From: an uncultured Clostridia bacterium
Lineage (GTDB): Bacteria; Bacillota; Clostridia; Lachnospirales; CAMVHY01
NCBI GenBank assembly: GCA_947427385.1
Contig: CANEHT010000001.1
Location: 19,572 to 83,571 of the forward strand
Reading direction: 5' to 3'
Length of the DNA: 64,000 bases
The position numbers were made by a program, and so were the translations under genes. Shown here in pieces: positions 1 through 55,400 of the stretch (position 1 is its first letter; each line of letters opens with the position of its first letter). The notes beneath the pieces are model-generated. The model saw nothing but the letters and a program-made list of their open reading frames with translations. It did not search any database and had not been told where the DNA came from.

Positions 1-2219
1 TTATTTATATCTAATCCCACTTGAAAAAATCCCGATAATTCAAGAACAGATTTTTTGGAATAAATATAAAATGTTTCAGGTATTTTTTCATAAAATTGTT
101 GAATTTTATCATTATTATTTTCAAAAGCTTCTTCAACAATAATTTTTGTAACTTCATCTCTTAAATTTTTTGATTTTGGTCCATTTAAAAATGAATTTAT
201 TTCCTTTAATGAATCCAAATCATTATTTTCTTCAACGATTAAAAGAATTTTAGCAATAAACTCAGGTTTTAATAAATGCAAATAACCACATAAAACACTT
301 TCTGAAAATTCTGCTTCAGCTAAAATTTGAAAAGCTATCTTAATTTCAACAACGTTATTAATTCGTAAATAAATTAATACCTCTTCTAGAACTTTATCAT
401 AATCACAAAATACTGTCATATTATTAAATTTACTATTAAAATATGTTATACATTCTTTACTAAATAATTTATCACTGTTTTCAATTATTGCGCTTGCATA
501 ATTTTCATTTAATAATTCACCTATTAAACCATCTACAAATTGCCAATTTAAATTACATACAATTTGAGGATATTGCAATAATATATTTTTGTTTTCTCTA
601 ACAATTTTATTATTAATTTCGTTTAATTCGCTAACAAATAAAATCCAATTATTCAAAAAAGCAAATTCGTATATTTTTAGCTCATCCTTATCAAATTCAG
701 CCAATTCAGGATAAACTTTAAAAATTTTACTCATATCAAAAGTGTTAAATGCCATTATTATATCCTCAATCGATGCACCGTTTATTAAACATCCATAAGT
801 ATATTCAACAGGACTTAATTGACAAACTTCCCTAGCAATTAAAGCACTTTCTATAGCCTGAGGTGTTTGACAAACTCTTCTAAAATTTATATTTTGAAAA
901 GATTCACGAAATTCATTTCTATAATTCTGTGGTACAAGTTGTAGAAGTTCTTCTTGCTGTTGTGTTATAACGAACCTAAAATTATCATTTTGTGCACATG
1001 CACGATTCCACAATTCATCTGTAAATCCATTTTCATCTATATTTGCAATAATCCAATCAATAAAAACAGAAACTTGTTCAGGTAGTAAATTTTTTAAAAC
1101 ATAATAAAGTTTTTCTAAACCACTTTCACCTTTATAATATTTTATCAATAACCTTCGTGAAATTCTGTATCTATTCCAAAACCAACATTTTTGTGAAATC
1201 ATGGACAAAGCAATTAATTCCCTTGCAGTCAACTTATTATTTCTAATAATTCTCAAAACCGACCATTTATCACATCCTAATACAAAAGAATTTACGTCAA
1301 AACCCTGCAATTCCTCAAAAGATAAATTTTTAAAAAAATCATTAGTAAATTTATTTGCTTTTGCACTAAATTCTCTTTGCGCAAAAGAATGTATTTGTGT
1401 TACTTTACCAAAAATAATATTAAAATTTTCTCCATAATCGCTATCACGAAAACTAGATAAATTAAATCCAAATCCATCTTGCATTTCACTAAACGAAAAA
1501 TTTATATTACCTTCTTGAATTTTTTCAAAAAGAATAGCAAAATCACAAAGTTTATTATCATAAGCTAATTTACCAAATATTAAATCATAAAAAAGTTCTT
1601 CTGAAATAAATTCTTTCCTTGTCATAAACGACAACAAACCTTTTGAGAAACTCAAATATTGTTCTTCATTACTCAAATCTTGTATTTCATTGGCTTTAAA
1701 CTTTTCAATTTCTCCATACATTTCATCTAAATTATAACAAATCCATAATATATCATTCGTTTTAGTTTTAGCATATTTCCCGCTGTCTAAAAAATTTCCT
1801 AAGTTAGATTCTCGATAAATACTATGAAGCAAAATATTTTTATTAAACATTATACCTGGACCAAGTTCAGTAAAAAAATTTTTGTTAATATGTTTATTTC
1901 TCGCAATAAATTCAGCCAACAAAATCAAAAAATTTCTATTTCTTATTTCATAAACACGAAATTCTTCTTCTTTTAAATTTGCAAAATCAATTTGTGATTT
2001 ATTTCCATCATTCAATAAATTTCCTAACTCTTCATAAACTAAACTTTCAATTCCATCAATTTGATTAATATAAAATGAAAATCTATTAAATAATTCTTCA
2101 GGAATATTATTTTCATCAAGAAGTTCTATATCTTTTATTAAATTAAAAATACCTTCTGCAATTCTTTTCGCTTTTGAACGCTCTTCATTATTTTCCGCTG
2201 CAGCCGTATTTTCACTCAT
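1..2219 (-). CDS. large orphan protein, paralog A (C-terminus lies beyond window edge; >=739 aa)
   Basis: In my own translation the minus-strand frame is open from ATG 2219-2217 (SD GAGGTG 5 nt upstream) to position 1 with no stop, which explains its absence from the ORF track. The N-terminus reads MSENTAAAENNEERSK. The central ~170 aa align with the 2344-4680 product (SQKCW..NR..RLLIK, LLQLVP, NFRxVCQTPQA, LSPxEY). No known domain recognised. Confidence 0.75.
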   Translation of the reverse strand, partial: MSENTAAAENNEERSKAKRIAEGIFNLIKDIELLDENNIPEELFNRFSFYINQIDGIESLVYEELGNLLNDGNKSQIDFANLKEEEFRVYEIRNRNFLILLAEFIARNKHINKNFFTELGPGIMFNKNILLHSIYRESNLGNFLDSGKYAKTKTNDILWICYNLDEMYGEIEKFKANEIQDLSNEEQYLSFSKGLLSFMTRKEFISEELFYDLIFGKLAYDNKLCDFAILFEKIQEGNINFSFSEMQDGFGFNLSSFRDSDYGENFNIIFGKVTQIHSFAQREFSAKANKFTNDFFKNLSFEELQGFDVNSFVLGCDKWSVLRIIRNNKLTARELIALSMISQKCWFWNRYRISRRLLIKYYKGESGLEKLYYVLKNLLPEQVSVFIDWIIANIDENGFTDELWNRACAQNDNFRFVITQQQEELLQLVPQNYRNEFRESFQNINFRRVCQTPQAIESALIAREVCQLSPVEYTYGCLINGASIEDIIMAFNTFDMSKIFKVYPELAEFDKDELKIYEFAFLNNWILFVSELNEINNKIVRENKNILLQYPQIVCNLNWQFVDGLIGELLNENYASAIIENSDKLFSKECITYFNSKFNNMTVFCDYDKVLEEVLIYLRINNVVEIKIAFQILAEAEFSESVLCGYLHLLKPEFIAKILLIVEENNDLDSLKEINSFLNGPKSKNLRDEVTKIIVEEAFENNNDKIQQFYEKIPETFYIYSKKSVLELSGFFQVGLDIN

Positions 2220-2343
2220 TTTATCACCTCAACTAAAAGCCACATTAATTATCATATAATTATTATAATACATATAAAAATATATTTAAAGCTAAGATGA
2301 ATAAAATAAATATTTATCTAAATTTAATAGCCTAATGTTTTTA

Positions 2344-4680
2344 TTATTTCCCCTTTTCATTCAAATTAAAATTTTCTTGAGGCGGCACATTATTTTCTGT
2401 AAGTTTCATTGCAACTTCTGGATTTGCAGCTAAATGTGCACCTAAATCCATAGCATTTGTATTTTCTGTTTTCTGCAATAGAGTAACGATGTTTGCTAAA
2501 TTTTCAACTGATTGATCCATCGATAATAAAATATCAGCAAAACTTTTTAATGTATCTTTTGCCCGCCATTTAACAAAGCTATTTAAAGTCGACATCAACT
2601 CATACGTACACTTGTTTACAATTAAACTATTAATAATTTTAAATGCTGTATTAATAGGCCCTTCAATATCGCATTTTTTAACTAACTCAACAATTTTTTG
2701 CTTTAATATTTTTTTGCTCGATTCATCACTTATTTTGGAGAGTTCACTTTTTATTGAACTCCAATCCAAAATATCTATTTGATTTACATCTAATCCTAAA
2801 TTTAAAAATTCATTTAACTGCAAAACATCTTCTTTTGAATTTATAAATTTAAAAACATCACACGTTTTGGCTAATTCATAAAATTTCTTGATTTTACTTT
2901 TATCATTTTCAAAAGTTTCTGTAATAAAATGTTTTTTTCGTTCAACAATAACTTTCATAACTTCAATTTTTATTTCCTTAAATTTTGGTTTATCTAAGTT
3001 TTTAATTAAAATATCGTATAAACACCAATTATTTTCTTTTGCTGCATAATCATATAAATCCACAATACAATTATAATCAGCAACTAATAAAAAATCAGCA
3101 AAAAGATCATTTGCAAAATAAAGTTCATCATTAAAATCAACAGTTGCAAACATTGCAAAGCCATTAGAAAATGTTTCAGTTACATTTTTATCTTCTGTAT
3201 ACCCATATTGCTTTAAAAAATTTCTCGACATTTTTTCTATTGTATCAAAACTTTTGAAATTTCCCCCGCTTTCAACTTTTTCAATATTTTCTTTATAATA
3301 TTTAATAGCATCCATTGAAAATATTTTATCTAAATAATTAAATAGATTATCTTTTATATTGGTAGGATCACTAAGCTCTAAAACAAATTGTTGTAAACGT
3401 AAATAATCAGCACACACTAATTGACTTTCATTAAATAATTTATTTTTATTTTCTTTACTGATAATCGAATCATCTATTTCATTTATAGCAAATGAAAATG
3501 TAATCCAAGAATGAATAAAATAAAATAAATACATTTTCTTTACACCATCAGGAAATTGATTCAATTGATCCCCAAAGACATTATAAATTTTATCTGCATT
3601 AAAAGTATCAAGTGCTATTTTTATATGTTCTATTTTCCCATAAGGTAAACAATGATTAATATATTCAATAGGACTTAATGAACAAGCTTCCGTAATAGTT
3701 AACAAATTTTTTACAGCTTGAGGAGTTTGACAAACCTTTCTAAAATTTTTATTTTGGAATAACTTACGAAATTCATCTTGTATTTCTGGAGGTACAAGTT
3801 GTAAAAGTGATTCTTGTTCACGCGATAAGAAACCATTATTTTGCGCTCGTTCCCACAAATCATTTACTAAACCATTTTCATTTGTTAAATTATTTATATT
3901 TTGATACAACCATCTATAAAAATTATCAACTTGATCTATTGGTAAATTATTTACGATATCAGCAATTCTATTTAAACCACTTCTGCCATTACCATCTTTT
4001 ATCAATAATCGTTGTAAAATTTTCTTTCTGTTCAAAGGCCAACATTTTTGTGAAACTCTTAATAAAACATTTATTTCTTCTACAGATAAATCATTATTTT
4101 GCATACATTTCGAAACTGATGGTTTTTTATACTGACTTACTAAAGGTTCTATATCAAAATCATTTAATTTTGCAAAAGAAGAGTTCCGAATAAAATAACG
4201 ATAATCAGTAAAGCTTCGCAATAAATTATTTGTGAAATTTTTCAGATTCTCTCGGGATTTTCTCCTTTCTGCAAAATAAAGTATGTCATACAATTTTTGC
4301 ATTTTATAAGAAATTTTTTCCCAATCATGCATAAATTCACATAATTGATGAAAATCAGGGTCATTCTTTTTCTTATAAGAAAATTTTGATTTTACTTCTC
4401 TCCAAATTTCAACAAAATTAATGATATCAAAATCTAAATCCGAATCTAAACCTACATTTTGTTTATTCATAATACGATGGCAAATAATATCATTTTTGGT
4501 TCGCGTTTTATCATTAAATGTCACTCTTGGGCCCAAAAATATATCTTCTTCAGCTAATAACGAATAATCTTCCAATAGCTTATCATAATCAATTTGATTT
4601 TCTTCATTAAAAATACGTTTGATATTATCTAAAGGAGCATAAGTATTATCTTTTCTAGTTCCATTTGTATTTCTATTCAT
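2344..4680 (-). CDS. large orphan protein, paralog B (778 aa)
   Basis: Long intact ORF with the same SD/start context (GAGGTGATAAA-ATG) and the same TGTATTATAATAAT -10 region as paralog A. It has no signal peptide, TM segment or catalytic motif that I recognise. Confidence 0.8.
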   Translation of the reverse strand: MNRNTNGTRKDNTYAPLDNIKRIFNEENQIDYDKLLEDYSLLAEEDIFLGPRVTFNDKTRTKNDIICHRIMNKQNVGLDSDLDFDIINFVEIWREVKSKFSYKKKNDPDFHQLCEFMHDWEKISYKMQKLYDILYFAERRKSRENLKNFTNNLLRSFTDYRYFIRNSSFAKLNDFDIEPLVSQYKKPSVSKCMQNNDLSVEEINVLLRVSQKCWPLNRKKILQRLLIKDGNGRSGLNRIADIVNNLPIDQVDNFYRWLYQNINNLTNENGLVNDLWERAQNNGFLSREQESLLQLVPPEIQDEFRKLFQNKNFRKVCQTPQAVKNLLTITEACSLSPIEYINHCLPYGKIEHIKIALDTFNADKIYNVFGDQLNQFPDGVKKMYLFYFIHSWITFSFAINEIDDSIISKENKNKLFNESQLVCADYLRLQQFVLELSDPTNIKDNLFNYLDKIFSMDAIKYYKENIEKVESGGNFKSFDTIEKMSRNFLKQYGYTEDKNVTETFSNGFAMFATVDFNDELYFANDLFADFLLVADYNCIVDLYDYAAKENNWCLYDILIKNLDKPKFKEIKIEVMKVIVERKKHFITETFENDKSKIKKFYELAKTCDVFKFINSKEDVLQLNEFLNLGLDVNQIDILDWSSIKSELSKISDESSKKILKQKIVELVKKCDIEGPINTAFKIINSLIVNKCTYELMSTLNSFVKWRAKDTLKSFADILLSMDQSVENLANIVTLLQKTENTNAMDLGAHLAANPEVAMKLTENNVPPQENFNLNEKGK

Positions 4681-4853
4681 TTTATCACCTCATTTGCAAA
4701 TTTACTGACATATCATTATTATAATACAAAATATATAAAAAGTAAATATATATTTACCAAAAAACAAAATTAGCAAAGAAAATACTTATTAGAAAGATTT
4801 CGTTTGAGTGACAAAAAAATGAAATTTTTTCAAGCAAAAAACTTTTTTGGGCA

Positions 4854-4887
4854 CAAAAAAAACTTCGCAAACGCGAAGCTTTTTTTC
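4854..4887 (-). terminator. rho-independent terminator downstream of eno
   Basis: Hairpin CTTCGC-aaac-GCGAAG (4863-4878) flanked by an A9 run and a T6 run. On the minus strand the T-run follows the stem. Confidence 0.7.
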
Positions 4888-4893
4888 ACACAA

Positions 4894-7766
<2,873 letters not shown>

Positions 7767-10365: not shown

Positions 10366-11250
10366 CTATTCTTTTCCTTTATCTTCGTTATTTTCTTTAA
10401 ATGGCTCATCTGAATAATCATCTAAATTATTTTCAACTTCATTAACTTCATAATTATCTTGTTCTTTTGCCTTTGATTGTTCCAATTGTTCTTCTTCTAA
10501 TTCAATTGTTTTTTTATCTGCCTTAAATTTGTCTATACAATAAGTGAAAAAAAATATCAGTACTAAACTAACAGCGGTAACAGGCGCTGCTATTTTTACA
10601 ACAACCGCAGCTGCTAACGCTAACAAACCAATTTCCCATGATATCAAAAAACTAATTGCTCCCAAAAAAATTAATAAGCCAATTGTTACTCCTATGCTGC
10701 CTAAAATTCCTAGCGTTTTATTTTTTGCTTTTCTTTCAGATAATTCTTTCCTTAAGATTTCTCTTTCTTTTTCTTTTTCATGAAATTCACATAAATTTTG
10801 AAAAAAGTTTTTTGCTAATTCAGTCTTTAAAGCACGACGTATCAAATTCACATTACTAAAAGAAAATAAATTTTCATCGCAAAGGCGATCAACGATTATT
10901 AAATTTTCATTATCTAAACTATTTTTTCCGCAAACATTAAGAAATTCAGGTAATATAGTAATATCAAATTTAAAATTCTTTGTTATTTGTAGAATAGTTT
11001 TCACACAATTTGCATCTAAAATTTCTTTTTCACAAACTCCAAAAAAGTAACCTAATGAAATTCTATCAAATTCAAGCCCAGCTTTCTTTATTGCCTCTGC
11101 AATATCATTTACTTGTTTAGTTGAGAACAGTTTAAAATTTAAATTCCCAAATAACAAAGTCAATTGAACATTTTTATTTTTATTTATCTCATCCAAAACA
11201 TTTTGAACTTTTTGCTCATGATCTTGATTTGAAATCTGTGTATCTTCCAT
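10366..11250 (-). CDS. orphan hydrophobic-hairpin/coiled-coil protein (294 aa from ATG 11250)
   Basis: Soluble N-domain, then a ~60-aa hydrophobic block LGILGSIGVTIGLLIFLGAISFLISWEIGLLALAAAVVVKIAAPVTAVSLVLIFFFTYCI, then an acidic tail. The track start (TTG 11352) lies inside a terminator stem and upstream of a TGTTATAAT -10 (11300-11308), so I prefer ATG 11250 (MEDTQIS). Confidence 0.6.
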   Translation of the reverse strand: MEDTQISNQDHEQKVQNVLDEINKNKNVQLTLLFGNLNFKLFSTKQVNDIAEAIKKAGLEFDRISLGYFFGVCEKEILDANCVKTILQITKNFKFDITILPEFLNVCGKNSLDNENLIIVDRLCDENLFSFSNVNLIRRALKTELAKNFFQNLCEFHEKEKEREILRKELSERKAKNKTLGILGSIGVTIGLLIFLGAISFLISWEIGLLALAAAVVVKIAAPVTAVSLVLIFFFTYCIDKFKADKKTIELEEEQLEQSKAKEQDNYEVNEVENNLDDYSDEPFKENNEDKGKE

Positions 11251-11513: not shown

Positions 11514-12086
11514 TTGCGTACCAAACTTAAAAATTTTTTTATAACATTATTATTTATTTCTTCAGATATTTTCTTTAAATTAGATTTTGCCAAAAATGAA
11601 CTTTCACAAATCAAACAAAATTTTGCAATAGCATTACCAAAAGCAATGCTTTGGATGACTTATAATTTAATTGCAGCCAAAGATTTAGAAAAACAAATTG
11701 CTATATCTCAAAATCAATATTGGTATTATATCATAAATATAATATCAGCAAATTCAAATTGCAATATTTAAACGCCATTACTTCAAAATTGCTAGAAAAT
11801 CTAAAATTAATCGTTGACGATAATGATCCTATTACCAATAAATTAGCAGAATTTAAGATAAATAATAATATGTTCCCTAAAAATTGCGTTATTGCAATTT
11901 CCGACTTATATTGCTTTTCAAAATTCTGTAGAAAGAATATATTTGTTTAATGATGTTGAACAAGTTGTTGGACACACAGTTTATCTAATGGCAATACAAT
12001 ATTTACTTTTTTTGTCGCACCAAGAATTAATAAAAATGGATTGTTTGTATTTAATGAAAACTCTAAAATTAATCAAGAAAACATAG
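11514..12086 (+). pseudogene. frameshifted 5' remnants of an orphan gene (three overlapping ORFs in frames 0/2/0)
   Basis: ORFs 11514-11771, 11720-11950 and 11892-12086 overlap end-to-start in different frames. The frame of the 12118 ORF opens at 12073, overlapping the last fragment. This pattern fits a ~385-aa gene broken by about three indels. Confidence 0.5.
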
Positions 12087-12117
12087 AAATTTTAGGTTCA
12101 CCTTTAATATAATTAAA

Positions 12118-12672
12118 ATGTATGATCCTGAGTTTGAATTGACAGATATACATTTTAAAGAAAATTTTATTAATTCAATAAACGATTTTTGCAAAGCTTT
12201 TGGATGTGATGAATTTGATAGTGAAAATATAATTAAAGAATGTGAAGATGATGCAAATAAATTTTTACAAGGTTTTCTACGAGAAAATAATGGAGTTAAA
12301 CAAATAAAAAATGAAATTAATAGCACTTCAAAAATGTTGAATAAATTGAGTTGGTTATTAGGGATTTTTTTTACTGCTGCACCAATAGCTGTAGGTATTG
12401 CACTTGGCGCAATTGGTATGCTTGTATGGCCTTTCGCTAGTATTATAATTTCGGCTGGTATTGTAGCTGGTATAATTTTTGGAATAGTTAAGTGTTGTCA
12501 AAAAGTACGGAACATAAATAATCTTAATAAAAACAATTCTGTTTATGGACAAAATAGTGATAGTATGAGAAAAAGTTTGCTTCCTAAAGAAGATAATGCA
12601 TTATTGCAAACAAATGAACTAAATGGTGAACAATTACAAAGTTTGCTCCTTAATTCAGAACAACGAGTATAA
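12118..12672 (+). CDS. orphan hydrophobic-hairpin protein (184 aa), possibly the 3' part of the disrupted gene starting near 11514
   Basis: Hairpin block LSWLLGIFFTAAPIAVGIALGAIGMLVWPFASIIISAGIVAGIIFGIV is followed by a basic KCCQKVRN stretch and an N/Q-rich tail. An upstream helix SENIIKECEDDANKFLQGF resembles the conserved Cys-helix of the 31-38 kb family. There is no SD before ATG 12118. Confidence 0.5.
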   Translation: MYDPEFELTDIHFKENFINSINDFCKAFGCDEFDSENIIKECEDDANKFLQGFLRENNGVKQIKNEINSTSKMLNKLSWLLGIFFTAAPIAVGIALGAIGMLVWPFASIIISAGIVAGIIFGIVKCCQKVRNINNLNKNNSVYGQNSDSMRKSLLPKEDNALLQTNELNGEQLQSLLLNSEQRV

Positions 12673-12780
12673 TTAATGATATTAAGTATTTTAATTCGCC
12701 TTAAAATAAAAATTGAAATACTATAAAAACAAATCATTTCAAGATTGATCATTAAATTCATTTTTGAAAAATATTACCGT

Positions 12781-12826
12781 TTGATTTACGTATTTTTATA
12801 TTATATAATGTTATCATAATGTAATT
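12781..12826 (+). promoter_or_regulatory. sigmaA-like promoter plus 11-bp-phased direct repeat
   Basis: TTGATT (12781-86), 17-nt spacer, TATAAT (12804-09). It is followed by TGTTATC-ATAA-TGTAATT (12809-12826). Confidence 0.45.
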
Positions 12827-12853
12827 TATATGTGTTTTGGGGAGGGATTTATT

Positions 12854-13309
12854 ATGGTGAAGGAAAATATACGCAATATGTTGTTGGATGTGATAAATAA
12901 TTATAATAAAAAGAATGGGGAATTAGATATATATTTTATTTTAGTTGATATGATTTTAAAAGAATTTGGAATAAATGATTTGAGGTTGGACGATTCAATA
13001 CTTTCTTCAGAATTAAAAAACAAAATTTCAGAACAAGCTGATTTATTTGCTATCAATTTTTATTGGATTTTGAATAATAATGAAAATGAAAAAAATATTG
13101 TTGATAAAATTTCAAAAGAAGAATCAGATTTAATTGATAAAATATGTTCTGTAATTAAAGAGGGAAGAACTGAATTACAAAGTTTAAATGAACAAAAAAG
13201 TATTCCGCAAGATGAACTTTCTTTGAAAGAGAAAATAGGTAATGTTGAGCAACAAAATAATTTTTATGTACCGAATCTTTATGAAGAAAATTCTATTGAA
13301 CATAAATAA
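12854..13309 (+). CDS. orphan acidic helical protein (151 aa)
   Basis: SD GGGGAGGG, 8-nt spacer, ATG 12854 (MVKENIRNML). No TM segment and no known motif. Confidence 0.65.
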   Translation: MVKENIRNMLLDVINNYNKKNGELDIYFILVDMILKEFGINDLRLDDSILSSELKNKISEQADLFAINFYWILNNNENEKNIVDKISKEESDLIDKICSVIKEGRTELQSLNEQKSIPQDELSLKEKIGNVEQQNNFYVPNLYEENSIEHK

Positions 13310-17714: not shown

Positions 17715-18500
17715 TTGAGTAAGATAAAAGTATTGCTTGCAGATGATAATAAAGAATTTTGCGACGTAATAGGAGGATATTTAGAAAAACAAGGCGATAT
17801 TGATGTTATAGATTGTGCGTATGACGGAGTAACAGCGTATAAAAAAATACAGGAATTAAAACCAGATGTTGCGATATTAGATGGGATAATGCCGAAATTA
17901 GATGGATTAGGAGTATTAGAGAAATTAGATAAGAAAAATCATCCAACAAGTTCACCAATGTGTATAATTTTATCCGCTATTACTCAAGAGAAAATAACGC
18001 AAAAAGCAATAGAGTTAGGAGCGGAGTATTATATAGCGAAACCATTTGACATAGATATTTTAGCGAAACGAGTTCATCAACTCAATAATAATATATTGCC
18101 GAATAAAAATATTTTATTCAAGAATAATGCGCTGCCATTTGAAAACTATAGTTTAAAGTCAAAAGTAACAGGTATCCTACATAACATAGGAGTACCTGCA
18201 CATATTCGTGGCTATCATTATATGAGGGAAGCAATAATGATGGCGGTAGACGATATAGATATTTTAAACTATATAACGAAAGAATTATATCCGGCAATAG
18301 CAAAAAAATGTAATACGACATCGAGTAGAGTTGAGCGGGCAATAAGGCATGCGATAGAAGTTGCATGGAACAGAGGAAAGGTAGAGGAAATTGATAAATT
18401 TTTTGGCTATACGATAAATAATAATAAGGGGAAGCCAACGAATAGTGAATTTATTGCACTAATAGCAGATAGATTAAGATTAGAATTAAAAGCAAGTTAA
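17715..18500 (+). CDS. spo0A: sporulation master regulator Spo0A (response regulator)
   Basis: Receiver domain (VLLADDN...[14 protein letters not shown]) plus the Spo0A-specific C-terminal HTH ([12 protein letters not shown]...[20 protein letters not shown]...KPTNSEFIA). Starts at TTG with SD GGAGGG. Confidence 0.95.
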
Positions 18501-20752: not shown

Positions 20753-21415
20753 TTATATTTGTGGATTATGATCTATTTCTATATTAGGATTATATTGATT
20801 AGATTGAGTGATGTTGATTGGTATTAAATTGAGCAAAAGACAAATAGTATTTCTAGTGATTGAATCCTCAATTATTTTGCAAACATTATTTATATGATGT
20901 TCATAATTTTTATTTACAATAAACATAAAGTAAAAATATATGGAAGTTAATTCTTCATGTTTAATAATAGTTTGAAAATAATTGAAAAAAGTTGGGTAAT
21001 TGGGGTTTTCTGATATTTTTGATAATGCATTATAAAATTTAGCAATTTTTTTGCATTGTAAATCATTAAATGACTCATTTTTTTCTGGGTAATTTGCTAC
21101 AAACTCTATTAATTTTTCCTTAAGATTTTCAAAATCGTTTTTTTTAAGATTTTCTATTGCGGTTTCGAAAAGATCTTTTTTTAAATCTTTTGCTTTAGGT
21201 GAAGAAGTATTTTCATAAGTAGCTTTAATTTCGTGATAATTTTTCCAAAAAAAATTAATAGAATCTTTAAACTTTTGTATTGAAATATCAAGGTTAACAG
21301 TATCTCTCAATGAATTAAATTTATCTGCTTCATAGCAGGTTTTCAATTTAAACAAATCTGCATTCAATAAAAAATTAACAAATATTTCATTTTTATCTAT
21401 TCCATTTTCAGACAT
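20753..21415 (-). CDS. orphan helical protein (220 aa), paralog of the N- and C-terminal parts of 21572-22648
   Basis: SD AGAGGAATTTTT-ATG TCT GAA (MSENG). Shares FWKNY/FWEKE and a C-terminal INITQSNQYNP motif with its neighbour. Confidence 0.7.
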   Translation of the reverse strand: MSENGIDKNEIFVNFLLNADLFKLKTCYEADKFNSLRDTVNLDISIQKFKDSINFFWKNYHEIKATYENTSSPKAKDLKKDLFETAIENLKKNDFENLKEKLIEFVANYPEKNESFNDLQCKKIAKFYNALSKISENPNYPTFFNYFQTIIKHEELTSIYFYFMFIVNKNYEHHINNVCKIIEDSITRNTICLLLNLIPINITQSNQYNPNIEIDHNPQI

Positions 21416-21447
21416 AAAAATTCCTCTAAAAAAATATTTTTCATAAC

Positions 21448-21575
21448 ATAATTATTATACATCACAAAAAATATAAAAGTCAAATTTCAAAAATTATTTC
21501 GACAAAATTTATATTATAAAAATAAAAAAGCTGAACTCATATGAATTCAGTTTTTTTATGTGAAAAAAATTTTAT
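21448..21575 (-). repeat. intergenic module copy A: terminator + 0A-box + promoter (~128 bp)
   Basis: Near-identical to 22677-22802, with a 77-bp exact core at 21481-21557. It contains the palindromic hairpin CTGAAcTCATATGAaTTCAG, TTCGACA (21498-21504, which is TGTCGAA on the coding strand), TTGACT (21478-83) and TATAAT (21454-59). Confidence 0.9.
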
Positions 21576-22648
21576 ATTGAATTTTGTTTTTCAACAAAAT
21601 TTTCAATTTGCGGAATTTGTTCATTCATAATTTCTGGGAAATTATTTGAAATAATCGTTAAAAGATTATTAGCATTTTCTTCTGGATTATTTGAGGACAA
21701 TTCTCCAATAATATCAAAAAAGTAATTTATTTCATTATCATTGGGATTGCTTTTAAGGTAATTAAGAAAGTTGATTACATTAATTAGTTGCTCACAAGTA
21801 AAGGCCGTATTTGTTTTTCGTAACATATTTTTAAAAATTCTTATTAATTGATCAATTTTTTCGTCTAATGATATAGGTTGAGGTTGTTGATTTGAAAAAA
21901 TTTGAGTAGTTTGTTGTTGTTGAGCTAAATTTGCTATATATCTTAAGGCTGGTGGTAATTGTTGCTGCAAATATGGTGGTAATTGGTTGTAAAAATTTAT
22001 CGCTTGGTTAATAAATTCATCTGGATTTGGATTAGGTTGAGTTGGATCCATAAATTTTTTGGATTTATTTAATAAATCCATGAATTGTTGTTGCAAATGT
22101 GGTGGTAATTGAGAACCAAAATTATTTGGTTGCGCAAAAATATTTCCAAATTGACTTGGAGTGTAATTCATAAATGGATTAAACATTGAATAATTATTGG
22201 GGGTTGGATTAAATGTTTGTGCAAAAGGAATTGGTTGAGATGTATTTTGATTTGATTGAGTCAAATTTATTGTAACTGAATTTTGATTTGTTTCATTTTG
22301 ATTGTTGATAGGATTAGGATTGTTATTTGAAGAATTTTCTCTTTTGGAATGTTTTATTTCAGTAAGATTCGAAGAAGTGTTTTCGTTATATTTTTTGTCT
22401 AAATTGGGTACTACTTCCTTTTCCCAAAAATTTTTAATGAAATTTTCGATTTCTTCTATTTTTTCTTTTTCTGTTTTACCTTCAGGGAATTTACAAAATC
22501 CAAATAATTTATAGAATTGTGTTGCATTTTCTCCATTAAGATAAAAATCAAATAATTTGCGTATTTTCATAATAGGTAAAAGCTTTTTAAGTTTTACAAA
22601 ATTAGTTTCTTTTTTTTCAGACATTTGTTTTTCAGACACAATAATCAC
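21572..22648 (-). CDS. orphan protein with long Q/N/P-rich low-complexity core (358 aa)
   Basis: The start region is GGAGTGATTATT-GTG TCT GAA AAA CAA ATG TCT GAA AAA. The true start is probably GTG 22639 or ATG 22624. The core includes the internal repeat QLPPHLQQQF / QLPPYLQQQLPPAL. Confidence 0.7.
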   Translation of the reverse strand: MIIVSEKQMSEKKETNFVKLKKLLPIMKIRKLFDFYLNGENATQFYKLFGFCKFPEGKTEKEKIEEIENFIKNFWEKEVVPNLDKKYNENTSSNLTEIKHSKRENSSNNNPNPINNQNETNQNSVTINLTQSNQNTSQPIPFAQTFNPTPNNYSMFNPFMNYTPSQFGNIFAQPNNFGSQLPPHLQQQFMDLLNKSKKFMDPTQPNPNPDEFINQAINFYNQLPPYLQQQLPPALRYIANLAQQQQTTQIFSNQQPQPISLDEKIDQLIRIFKNMLRKTNTAFTCEQLINVINFLNYLKSNPNDNEINYFFDIIGELSSNNPEENANNLLTIISNNFPEIMNEQIPQIENFVEKQNSI

Positions 22649-22676
22649 TCCAAAATTTTTTTGAAATTTGCTACGA

Positions 22677-22802
22677 AATTATTATACAACACAAAAAAAT
22701 AAAAATCAAATTTCAAAAATTATTTCGACAAAATTTATATTATAAAAATAAAAAAGCTGAACTCATATGAATTCAGTTTTTTTTATGTGAAAAAAATTTT
22801 AT
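22677..22802 (-). repeat. intergenic module copy B: terminator + 0A-box + promoter (~126 bp)
   Basis: See copy A. Hairpin at 22757-22776, TTCGACA at 22724-22730, -35 TTGATT at 22704-09, -10 TATAAT at 22681-86. Confidence 0.9.
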
Positions 22803-23293
22803 TAGTTAATAGCTAGCCAAATTAAATAATTTATATCTGAAAGTTTTAACTGTGCGATATAATTTATTTTCTTATTTATATCAGGATTAGCTATTTCATT
22901 TGATAGCCGTAATAAATTTTGTAAATTTGAATTCTCCTCATATATTGCATAATTTATTGCGGCTTTAAAATTTCCCGGTAAATTTATTTTTATTTCTTTA
23001 ACTTCAAATAAATCTGATGAGTAAGTCGAATAAATTTCACGTAAAATATTTTGTCGGTACCGACAATTATTTTTTATTTCCATTAAAATTTTATTCATTG
23101 AGTTAGTTTCTAATTTCGTATAAAATACCTCAGCATTATATTCATCTTGGATAAGATTTTTAATTTTATTCGTATCAAATGGTAGTGGATTTTCTAGCAT
23201 ATTTTTATTAAATGGCTCAAATCGTACGCCATCTAATGAATTAAATTGATTTGGAGGAATTTGCGGCATAAATAAATTTTGCAAGTCTCTCAC
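22802..23293 (-). CDS. ferritin-like-fold protein with apparently degenerate metal ligands (spore-coat-type family?)
   Basis: 163 aa with a P/Q-rich N-terminus followed by IQDEYNAEVFYTKL ... IKNNCRYRQNILREIY ... AINYAIYEENSNLQNLLRL ... IAQLKLSDINYLIWL. From memory this matches the four-helix pattern of clostridial ferritin-like proteins (E..A..FY / DE..H ..IY / E.....Y / DE..H). Here the DE..H positions read NN..Y and LK..D. The start is ambiguous (GTG 23293 or TTG 23284). Confidence 0.4.
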   Translation of the reverse strand: MRDLQNLFMPQIPPNQFNSLDGVRFEPFNKNMLENPLPFDTNKIKNLIQDEYNAEVFYTKLETNSMNKILMEIKNNCRYRQNILREIYSTYSSDLFEVKEIKINLPGNFKAAINYAIYEENSNLQNLLRLSNEIANPDINKKINYIAQLKLSDINYLIWLAIN

Positions 23294-25445: not shown

Positions 25446-25486
25446 AATCCCTTGCGTTAGACAATAACGTTGAGGGATTTTTTTTA
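25446..25486 (+). terminator. groESL terminator
   Basis: AATCCCT...AGGGATT stem with an inner CGTT/AACG stem, followed by a T8 run. The T-run overlaps the stop codon of the convergent 25484-25945 gene. Confidence 0.65.
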
Positions 25487-25945
25487 GCTTTCATAATCTT
25501 GCATAATGGTAATTAATTTATCTTCATCGGAAATTTTAATACCATTTTCGAGACGTGTTTTATCTTCTGAACTTAATGATTCAATTGGAGTATTTGTCAA
25601 TTCTTTCAGATTTTTTTTTCTGCCGTCATGGAAAAAAACGGCGACATATCCATCTTTTATTCCAATTATATAATATTGCTGGCGTTTAGCGGCAATATTT
25701 TTTTGCATAACAATTTTTTCACGTGAAAAGTCTTTGACATTCCAATCACTAAATATATTTTTAAAATCATGTTCATTCATCCCGATTAAGAAATTCGGGG
25801 CAAGTTTACTTTCCGTATAATTGTCATAGTTGTAAATAATTTTTGTAGATGGCGTAATAATTTGTGGCGGAAATTTTTGAGTTAATCGCCATATCAGATA
25901 AATTATAGCGGTAAAAATTATTGCGATGAGATATTTTTTTTTCAT
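25484..25945 (-). CDS. BofC-like (bypass-of-forespore C) protein with N-terminal membrane anchor
   Basis: DFKNIFSDWNVKDFSREKIVMQKNI and YYIIGIKDGYVAVFFHDGRKK..LKELTNTPIESLSSEDKTRLENGIKISDEDKLITIMQDYES parallel B. subtilis BofC as I recall it (DFWAAYAGWTLVEQKKGYVLFRKQM; GYIGVSDNGVISTFHG...IDLERLES..QKNLLKGIPF..KAEFEDVIEHMKTYS). Confidence 0.55.
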   Translation of the reverse strand: MKKKYLIAIIFTAIIYLIWRLTQKFPPQIITPSTKIIYNYDNYTESKLAPNFLIGMNEHDFKNIFSDWNVKDFSREKIVMQKNIAAKRQQYYIIGIKDGYVAVFFHDGRKKNLKELTNTPIESLSSEDKTRLENGIKISDEDKLITIMQDYES

Positions 25946-55213: not shown

Positions 55214-55302
55214 CGGAAAAGAAGGGATTTGAACCCTTGCATCGATTAACTCGACCTACTCCCTTTCCAAGGGAGCCCCTTCAGCCACTTGGGTACTTTT
55301 CC
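55214..55302 (-). tRNA. tRNA-Ser (anticodon GGA)
   Basis: Manual fold: acceptor GGAAAAG/CTTTTCC, anticodon arm CTCCC-TTGGAAA-GGGAG, long variable arm, T arm AAGGG-TTCAAAT-CCCTT, discriminator G. The 3' CCA is not encoded. Confidence 0.85.
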
Positions 55303-55314
55303 ATAAAAAAGGAG

Positions 55315-55400
55315 CGGAGAGAGTGGGATTCGAACCCACGGCTCCTTACGGAGACACCAGTTTTCAAGACTGGCTCCTTAAACCACTCGGACATCTCTCC
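55315..55400 (-). tRNA. tRNA-Ser (anticodon UGA)
   Basis: Manual fold: acceptor GGAGAGA/TCTCTCC, anticodon arm CCAGT-CTTGAAA-ACTGG, variable arm with CTCC-gtaa-GGAG, T arm GTGGG-TTCGAAT-CCCAC. The 3' CCA is not encoded. Confidence 0.88.

Follow-up and report, generated by a model that had tools for sequence, protein, structure and literature searches.

We examined a 64,000-nucleotide (nt) stretch of DNA from an uncultured Clostridia bacterium (GenBank assembly GCA_947427385.1, contig CANEHT010000001.1), hereafter the window, which begins with two adjacent minus-strand genes, A and B, of a hypervariable orphan protein family. Gene A (2344..4680) is an intact open reading frame (ORF) encoding an acidic protein of 778 amino acids (aa; P0001) that is predicted to be all-helical. 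An identical protein A was found on 12 contigs from independent assemblies. Gene B (1..2219) leaves the window at its left end, and its first 739 codons, the open, N-terminal part of the gene, lie inside. On a longer, 95-kb contig of the same strain (L001; window coordinate = 14681 - L001 coordinate) the complete gene can be read at L001:12462-15125 and encodes 887 aa. A sequence-only reading of the window had described A and B as tandem paralogs of ~750-780 aa with a shared core of ~170 aa. Their paralogy was borne out by BLASTP, which gave 36% identity across 518 aligned aa (E 1e-70). The proposed size fits A but falls short of the complete B. Since BLASTP aligns 518 aa, the homology is also much wider than the ~170-aa core, although the strings quoted from that core (SQKCW..NR and LLQLVP...EFR..FQN.NFR.VCQTPQA) are the best conserved. 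Residue 129 of A pairs with residue 272 of B in this alignment, which makes B ~140 aa longer at the N-terminus, and the N-termini themselves are unalignable.

The family has an architecture of four parts: an N-terminal helical domain, a ~180-aa core, a variable middle and a C-terminal region. The core is the only moderately constrained part. In A it lies at 3556..4098 on the minus strand (~residues 195-375; alignments A1, A4 and A5) and carries the motif LS..E..L..S.KCW.WNR ... AQN.GF.SREQE.LLQLVP.E..EFR..F.N.NFRKVCQT ... EYI ... ALDTF. In B it lies at 675..1247, also on the minus strand (~residues 325-515; BLASTP and alignments). A direct repeat of 131 nt with 78% identity connects the two cores (786-916 in B, 3646-3776 in A). 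The C-terminal region consists of one or two ~60-aa modules with the pattern ..INSK.DVL.L.E.L..G.DI.K....DF..IK.. and a conserved tail. The module occurs once in the B alleles of 887-890 aa and twice in alleles of 975-982 aa (pairwise E 1e-8), and the tail motif L.A.P.V...L.T.EN.P is common to A, B and two distant orthologs described below (P0020 and P0022). One A allele contains an internal duplication at its N-terminus. These ORFs run for 778-982 codons in DNA of 25% GC.

Extending the contig leftward, which the sequence-only reading had suggested as a way to count further copies, added one more paralog, C, beyond pta-ackA; the genes are duplicated as claimed, in three copies and not two. 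The gene order on the longer contig is eno-A-B-pta-ackA-C-sigK, followed by a nucleoside triphosphate (NTP)-transferase gene, and the sigma-factor gene beside C carries a SigK-type pro-sequence. This order is fixed in six strains. Paralog C (L001:17511-19736, left of the window on the same contig and strain) encodes 741-744 aa, has no Pfam match and lies directly upstream of the sigK-like gene. It matched A over the core by BLASTP (E 3e-7) and the family by hhalign (96% probability, E 2.4e-9), and the C-type ORF of a further strain (L010) matched a broader profile with E 4e-17 in an alignment spanning the N-domain and the core. C has these two parts in common with A and B and is without the C-terminal half. 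In the window strain the core motif of C, ...GFF.LS.NQQKVF..VPE...EF..NF...EFR, is present twice, and the protein ends in a moderately hydrophobic stretch. A six-frame hmmsearch of the rest of the window (4.7-64 kb) found no further paralog.

We compared the rates of evolution among three near-conspecific strains with the same gene order, L001 (the window strain), L005 and L006, using pairwise Nei-Gojobori estimates on recombining sequences. The flanking genes (Tpi, Pgm, Eno, Pta, AckA, SigK and the NTP-transferase) encode proteins sharing 96.6-100% identity, with synonymous rates (dS) of 0.03-0.24 and ratios of nonsynonymous to synonymous rates (dN/dS) of 0.01-0.13. In contrast, protein identity is 40-56% for A (dS 0.34-0.69, dN/dS 0.80-0.84), 52-77% for B (dS 0.15-0.41, dN/dS 0.86-1.01) and 34-66% for C (dS 0.38-0.67, dN/dS 0.67-0.84). 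The genes are thus as fast-evolving as the sequence-only reading had supposed (dN/dS 0.67-1.01 against 0.01-0.13 in the flanks), and amino-acid change in A, B and C firmly proceeds near the neutral rate. The cleanest pair is B of L001 and L006, in which dS (0.150) equals the flank value and dN is 0.129; dN of B is 10-60 times the flank dN at equal dS. Over the whole gene, the ratio of nonsynonymous to synonymous differences per site (pN/pS) for this pair is 0.87, indistinguishable from 1, against 0.07 for the seven pooled flank genes. The ratio fell to 0.49 in the core and to 0.46 across the first 103 residues (each P ~0.03 for <1), and it reached 1.37 in residues 454-654 (P = 0.09). Positive selection (omega > 1) did not reach significance in any region of B by Fisher test, and for B it may be suggested but is not demonstrated. 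The 323 nt differences between the two B alleles include zero stop codons; random substitutions at the gene's base composition produced a mean of 24.7 stops and a minimum of 9 in 2000 trials. A, B and C are genuine genes on which selection acts, and their reading frame and expression signals are maintained. Third-position GC content (GC3) is 0.13-0.16 in A, B and C and 0.23-0.30 in the flanks. Between A alleles dS is about two to three times the flank value, and because the A-allele dS of 0.34-0.69 exceeds the 0.1-0.2 of the flanks, old A allele lineages are hinted at, with alignment uncertainty inflating dS.

The sequences vary from strain to strain but not within a lineage, since one A allele is identical on 12 contigs and no repeat of the kind found in diversity-generating retroelements (DGRs) or invertons was detected. 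Common alleles were recovered 7-12 times from different assemblers and samples. A search of positions 1-5000 for a template/variable repeat pair or promoter-flanking inverted repeats returned only paralog-derived repeats and short AT-rich chance pairs, and the gene tables of the examined loci contain no reverse transcriptase domain. This repeat search and the identity of one allele on 12 contigs rule out a DGR target and phase variation by promoter inversion. The alleles are mosaic. P0004 is ~90% identical to the L006-type B at its N-terminus and ~90% identical to the L005-type B at its C-terminus, with a middle unlike any other allele, and in the A of the window a unique N-terminus is joined to a C-terminus that shares 70-90% identity with other A alleles. 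Within the core, the A and B genes of a single strain resemble each other as closely as orthologs do, and paralog dS is as low as ortholog dS. Gene conversion between paralogs A and B therefore operates. One strain carries a single chimeric gene between eno and pta (L010:4903-7389), with an A-like N-terminus and a B-like tail, which is the expected product of unequal crossing-over. Strain L006 has a truncated A (L006:7278-9874, 766 aa and a 107-aa fragment) and a C split into two ORFs (L006:15059-16994), either by real decay or by assembly error.

A and B share their upstream signals, as had been noticed earlier. The 14-mer TGTATTATAATAAT is found upstream of both (4715-4728 for A, 2259-2272 for B), and GAGGTGATAAAATG stands directly before both start codons. 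The -10 hexamer of a sigma-70-like match that ranks among the best in the region falls within each 14-mer. The putative sigma-A-type promoter of A (4718..4746, minus strand) reads TTTACT-17-TATAAT and that of B (2262..2290, minus strand) TTTAAA-17-TATAAT; both overlap the shared 14-mer and match the consensus at 10/12 positions. A strong ribosome-binding site (RBS), GAGGTG, lies 5 nt ahead of the start codon in each case (4686..4691 before the ATG at 4680 for A, 2225..2230 before the ATG at 2219 for B; minus strand). The promoter-like site and RBS of A and B are near-invariant in five strains, even in front of unrelated first codons. Upstream of C we found TTGATA-16-TATAAT, an 11/12 sigma-A match, and C too has a strong RBS. 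The sigK gene itself is preceded by an AC...CATATATTA mother-cell-type element; when the 130-nt stretches preceding A, B and C were read by eye, neither this element nor a clear CATA-type -10 was found, and this inspection thus gave no sporulation-type promoter (sigE/sigK, AC ... CATA---TA) for the three genes. Because their sigma-A matches reach 10-11/12, unlike the mother-cell element at sigK, vegetative expression of A, B and C seems probable. A hairpin terminator of the enolase gene (4863..4878, minus strand) lies upstream of A and marks the boundary of the locus. A sequence scan found no terminator-like hairpin between A, B, pta, ackA and C, the gap from B to pta-ackA being ~40-120 nt without a predicted terminator, and read-through between A/B/C and the acetate-fermentation genes is therefore possible.

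The family is firmly restricted to a few lineages. A word-indexed search of 5.8 billion clusters matched 8, none of them named, and an exhaustive profile search of 1.84 billion representative proteins matched 12, several of which are fragments, in agreement with its earlier description as lineage-specific. Among 185,579 species-representative genomes, one contains the family, a metagenome-assembled genome (MAG) from the mouse gut. Literature searches by accession and topic returned nothing relevant to it. Two distant full-length orthologs, P0020 (L007:10001-13867, 1288 aa) and P0022 (L008:10001-13876, 1291 aa), occur in two other low-GC spore-former lineages and are collinear with A and B apart from large insertions. 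Their genes have an ABC-F ATPase gene on one side and, directly downstream, the same sigK-like gene; this is the slot of C in the window lineage. P0020 and P0022 are 31% identical over ~1300 aa, compared to 56-83% for their neighbours, and so fast evolution with a kept full-length architecture is a long-term property of the family. No neighbourhood of the family is conserved except the adjacency to sigK, which is seen in every locus that reaches sigK. All family carriers are endospore formers. The window contains spo0A (17715-18500, plus strand) and a BofC-like gene (25484-25945, minus strand), and spoIIIAE-AH and spoIIGA-sigE are present in the L007 lineage.

The family has no detectable relation to described families or, by comparison with the PDB and BFVD, to solved folds. 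Its orphan status, claimed by the sequence-only reading, was upheld in Pfam, NCBIfam, PADLOC, PHROGs, PDB sequences, Foldseek-PDB and BFVD, none of which gave a significant match. The Pfam-A search covered A, B, C, P0010, P0014, P0020 and P0022, and the NCBIfam search A and B. The best curated-family scores lay far under the cut-off (HTH_TANC1, E 0.14, 12.4 bits, cut-off 27; GapS6a, E 0.086, 13.1 bits, cut-off 90). PHROGs returned nothing for A or B below E 0.1; the best match, phrog_5598 (E 0.0059), was to a 45-aa motif of C only. PDB sequences gave zero matches with the single protein and with profiles A1 and A4. The core profile A5, which recovers the family members at E 1e-50 to 1e-80, had a sole PDB match, in the human DNA primase PRIM1 and confined to its helical subdomain (E 0.045, domain i-E 0.17), which we rejected, as it is not significant, consists of one short LVPE...F..F string and has no Foldseek match to PRIM1 behind it. 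AlphaFold2 models, calculated from shallow family alignments, were all alpha. The predicted local distance difference test (pLDDT) score for A was ~90 at residues 200-640 and <50 in the allele-specific first 189 residues, and its mean for B (residues 1-739) was 84, N-terminal domain included. Foldseek searches with these models found no match in the PDB or BFVD (best E 0.18-0.7, template-modelling score, TM, ~0.1), and the weak matches were generic helical solenoids.

A hydropathy scan agreed with the earlier observation of no transmembrane segment or signal peptide, here for the family proteins, and all members are acidic, with net charges from -9 to -39. The family-invariant residues are mostly aromatic or aliphatic, accompanied by a small number of polar residues (K, E, R, Q, T, N) within the WNR and NFR..QT motifs, and include no catalytic-like constellation. 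Conserved cysteines had been reported in the core and proposed for metal binding. They hold between A and B but not in the wider family: in P0020, P0022 and most C-type paralogs C213 gives way to T or S (KCW becoming KTW, KTY or RSW), C317 gives way to V in P0022 (VCQT to VVQT) and to Y in P0004 (FYQT), and the other cysteines are variable. The candidate ligands of a Cys4 metal-binding domain are thus not invariant, and because of these replacements a structural metal site is unlikely. A, B and C form a lineage-restricted, acidic family that looks soluble, is modelled as all-alpha and has no recognisable enzymatic, membrane or export motif. The proteins are probably non-enzymatic and soluble, judging by the lack of domain matches and transmembrane segments, the aromatic and aliphatic invariants, the acidity and the all-alpha models. 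A cytoplasmic location is predicted solely from the absence of export signals.

We propose tentatively, and with less than even confidence, that A, B and C encode non-enzymatic scaffolds that serve binding or recognition in antagonistic coevolution, most likely intracellular, against phage or mobile-element proteins. Antagonistic coevolution is suggested by the conserved scaffold with hypervariable arms, the several paralogs, gene conversion and old mosaic alleles, and an intracellular target is ranked first because the proteins look intracellular and vegetatively expressed. The products would act inside the cell as a sensor, decoy or blocker of phage or mobile-element proteins. The conserved core would provide the fold or the coupling to a partner, the variable helical arms would provide specificity, and several diverged paralogs with many alleles would broaden the recognition range of a strain. 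That the system is of the ‘conflict-type’, a label already used by the sequence-only reading, is what we infer. It is more doubtful that the locus represents an unrecognised strain-specific recognition system of gut Clostridia, built on a stand-alone, non-enzymatic, all-helical protein whose fold is missing from the PDB and on recombining paralogs kept at a fixed core-genome position. Its arms would then bind proteins of phages or mobile elements, as an innate immune sensor or decoy, or serve to tell self from non-self, with specificity renewed by gene conversion among tandem copies and not by gain and loss of defence islands.

Several observations weigh against the proposal of a conflict scaffold. 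No PADLOC-DB family matched A, B, C, P0020 or P0022 at E <= 1, no effector domain or partner gene is evident, and the locus lies outside any defence island. Every strain seen carries it at a fixed core-genome position, whereas most defence genes vary by presence and absence, and the conserved adjacency to sigK points rather to sporulation. Contig scans found no relative in JGI metagenome contigs or IMG/VR viral contigs. The promoter consensus matches are no commoner in this AT-rich DNA than in shuffled sequence. All sequences are metagenome-derived, and the rarer alleles P0003, P0004 and P0008, found on one or two contigs, could be partly chimeric. Finally, strong relaxation, with selection on length and helicity alone, would fit the pN/pS of B equally well.

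This last point leads to the rival that we consider doubtful though serious, in which the proteins are loosely constrained intracellular scaffolds or spacers whose length, acidity and helicity matter, drifting near-neutrally to an AT-rich equilibrium with recombination as a by-product and no conflict involved. A whole-gene pN/pS of 0.87 with no region significantly above 1, purifying selection solely in the core and extreme N-terminus, and the low GC3 (0.13-0.16 against 0.23-0.30 in the flanks) are what such drift predicts, and the truncated A and split C of L006 could be ongoing decay, or assembly error. However, the frames stay open where ~25 stops were expected between the B alleles of L001 and L006, full-length collinearity persists over genus-level divergence (31% identity over ~1300 aa), and the promoters are strictly conserved. 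AlphaFold2 gives well-packed domains (pLDDT 84-90) and not disorder, while an allele dS two to three times that of the flanks, together with mosaic old alleles, points to maintained polymorphism. The same open frames bear on whether the genes are decaying or untranscribed relics, which the sequence-only reading had named as what could overturn it, or artefacts of metagenome assembly. All data are MAG or metagenome contigs and one strain has the truncated A and split C, but zero stops against the 24.7 expected by simulation essentially refutes decay, identical alleles recur 7-12 times across assemblers and samples, and the promoter and RBS are conserved and the structure predictions confident, so that we regard this explanation as very improbable.

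In our estimation it is rather unlikely that the proteins belong to the spore surface or to another extracellular structure; they would be made without a signal peptide because their assembly into a coat or exosporium layer takes place in the mother-cell cytoplasm, and they would diversify under host immunoglobulin A, phage adsorption or grazing. Among sporulation proteins, those of the coat show some of the lowest conservation, and hypervariability without export signals is the pattern of an exposed, mother-cell-assembled protein. The lone 1288-1291-aa ortholog in two distant lineages and C here lie directly upstream of a sigK-like gene, and every carrier has sporulation genes (spo0A, BofC-like, spoIIIA, spoIIGA-sigE and sigK with its pro-sequence). 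Like coat or exosporium morphogenetic and outer-layer proteins, the family is lineage-specific, poorly conserved, devoid of a signal peptide and encoded near a mother-cell sigma factor gene; unlike them, it has no sigE/sigK-type promoter and no match to a named coat family in Pfam or NCBIfam, and its members are much larger than is typical. The adjacency to sigK is the sole link to sporulation, whereas A, B and C are preceded by sigma-A-like pairs with no CATA-type -10 as at sigK, and the ~40-120-nt gap from B to pta-ackA without a predicted terminator suggests vegetative co-transcription. We judge it improbable that the proteins are polymorphic effectors leaving the cell by a non-classical route (type VII secretion system (T7SS)-like, holin or lysis dependent) to act on competitors or the host. 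Variable termini around a conserved region, tandem paralogs and the lack of a Sec signal would suit such effectors, and the conserved C-terminal tail L.A.P.V...L.T.EN.P could be a targeting signal, but there is no LXG, WXG or toxin domain at Pfam E <= 1, and no small immunity-like ORFs, T7SS or holin genes lie within 10 kb in any examined locus.

Returning to the proposed recognition scaffold, we compared the family with known systems in evolutionary behaviour only, and the STAND/Avs-DSR2 comparison does not extend to homology. Proteins of the STAND/Avs and DSR2 type of defence have helical-repeat sensor arms that are thought to recognise phage proteins. These arms resemble the family in being large, predicted to be cytoplasmic, all-alpha and fast-evolving proposed binding surfaces. 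The defence proteins differ in that they carry an NTPase and/or an effector domain (nuclease, SIR2 or others) and lie in presence/absence-variable defence islands, while the family has no such domain, no PADLOC match and a fixed core-genome locus. HsdS of type I restriction-modification is a cytoplasmic protein whose helical spacers are conserved and whose variable modules are shuffled by recombination. The family likewise shuffles modules between alleles and paralogs, but it has no Methylase_S domain and no hsdM/hsdR neighbour, and it is predicted to be all-alpha in contrast to the target recognition domains of HsdS. Flagellin has conserved termini and an extremely diverse central region (PMC7018530). 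The family is similar in combining housekeeping-level conservation with extreme diversity in one gene, in its mosaic alleles and in its fixed position. Unlike flagellin, which is exported, surface-exposed and of known fold, it is conserved centrally with variable flanks and has no export signal or known fold.

Other variable and orphan genes occur in the window. At 10366-11250 (minus strand) lies a hypervariable orphan of 294 aa with a soluble helical N-terminal part, 2-3 predicted transmembrane helices and an acidic tail. Between strains its identity is 37-43%, and that of the adjoining 154-aa ORF and aroC is 93-95%. We considered this gene as a relative of A and B, and hhalign found no relation. 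Beside it (~11514-13309) are orphan ORFs of 85, 184 and 159 aa, which tblastn did not find in the syntenic regions of the other examined strains and which form a strain-specific insert; at least two strains (L006 and L009) have folate-biosynthesis genes in their place. Two low-GC ORF clusters, at 20753-23269 (minus strand; 220, 350 and 155 aa) and at 31547-38631 (plus strand; 483, 379, 73, 82, 370, 234 and 345 aa), have essentially no Pfam match. The sole Rfam matches in the window are two adjacent tRNA genes at 55214-55400 (minus strand). Three genes downstream of sigK in strain L006 is a DUF4116 protein of 874 aa (L006:19603-22227) with a weak metallophosphatase match and no detected similarity to A or B.

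With few exceptions, the hypervariable genes known from bacteria code for surface or exported proteins or are part of mobile defence islands, while the family described here is apparently intracellular and vegetatively expressed. Its amino-acid sequences change near-neutrally in a kept reading frame, and it is flanked by glycolysis and acetate-fermentation genes whose identity across strains is 97-100%. Should the arms race be real, the locus would be a new type of recognition module that diversifies in a new way, by gene conversion among paralogs at a fixed locus, in an uncultured mouse-gut lineage. If the proteins belong to the spore surface, they would provide a strain-typing antigen for this lineage. 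Either way, the alleles are a strain marker and a target for structure determination.

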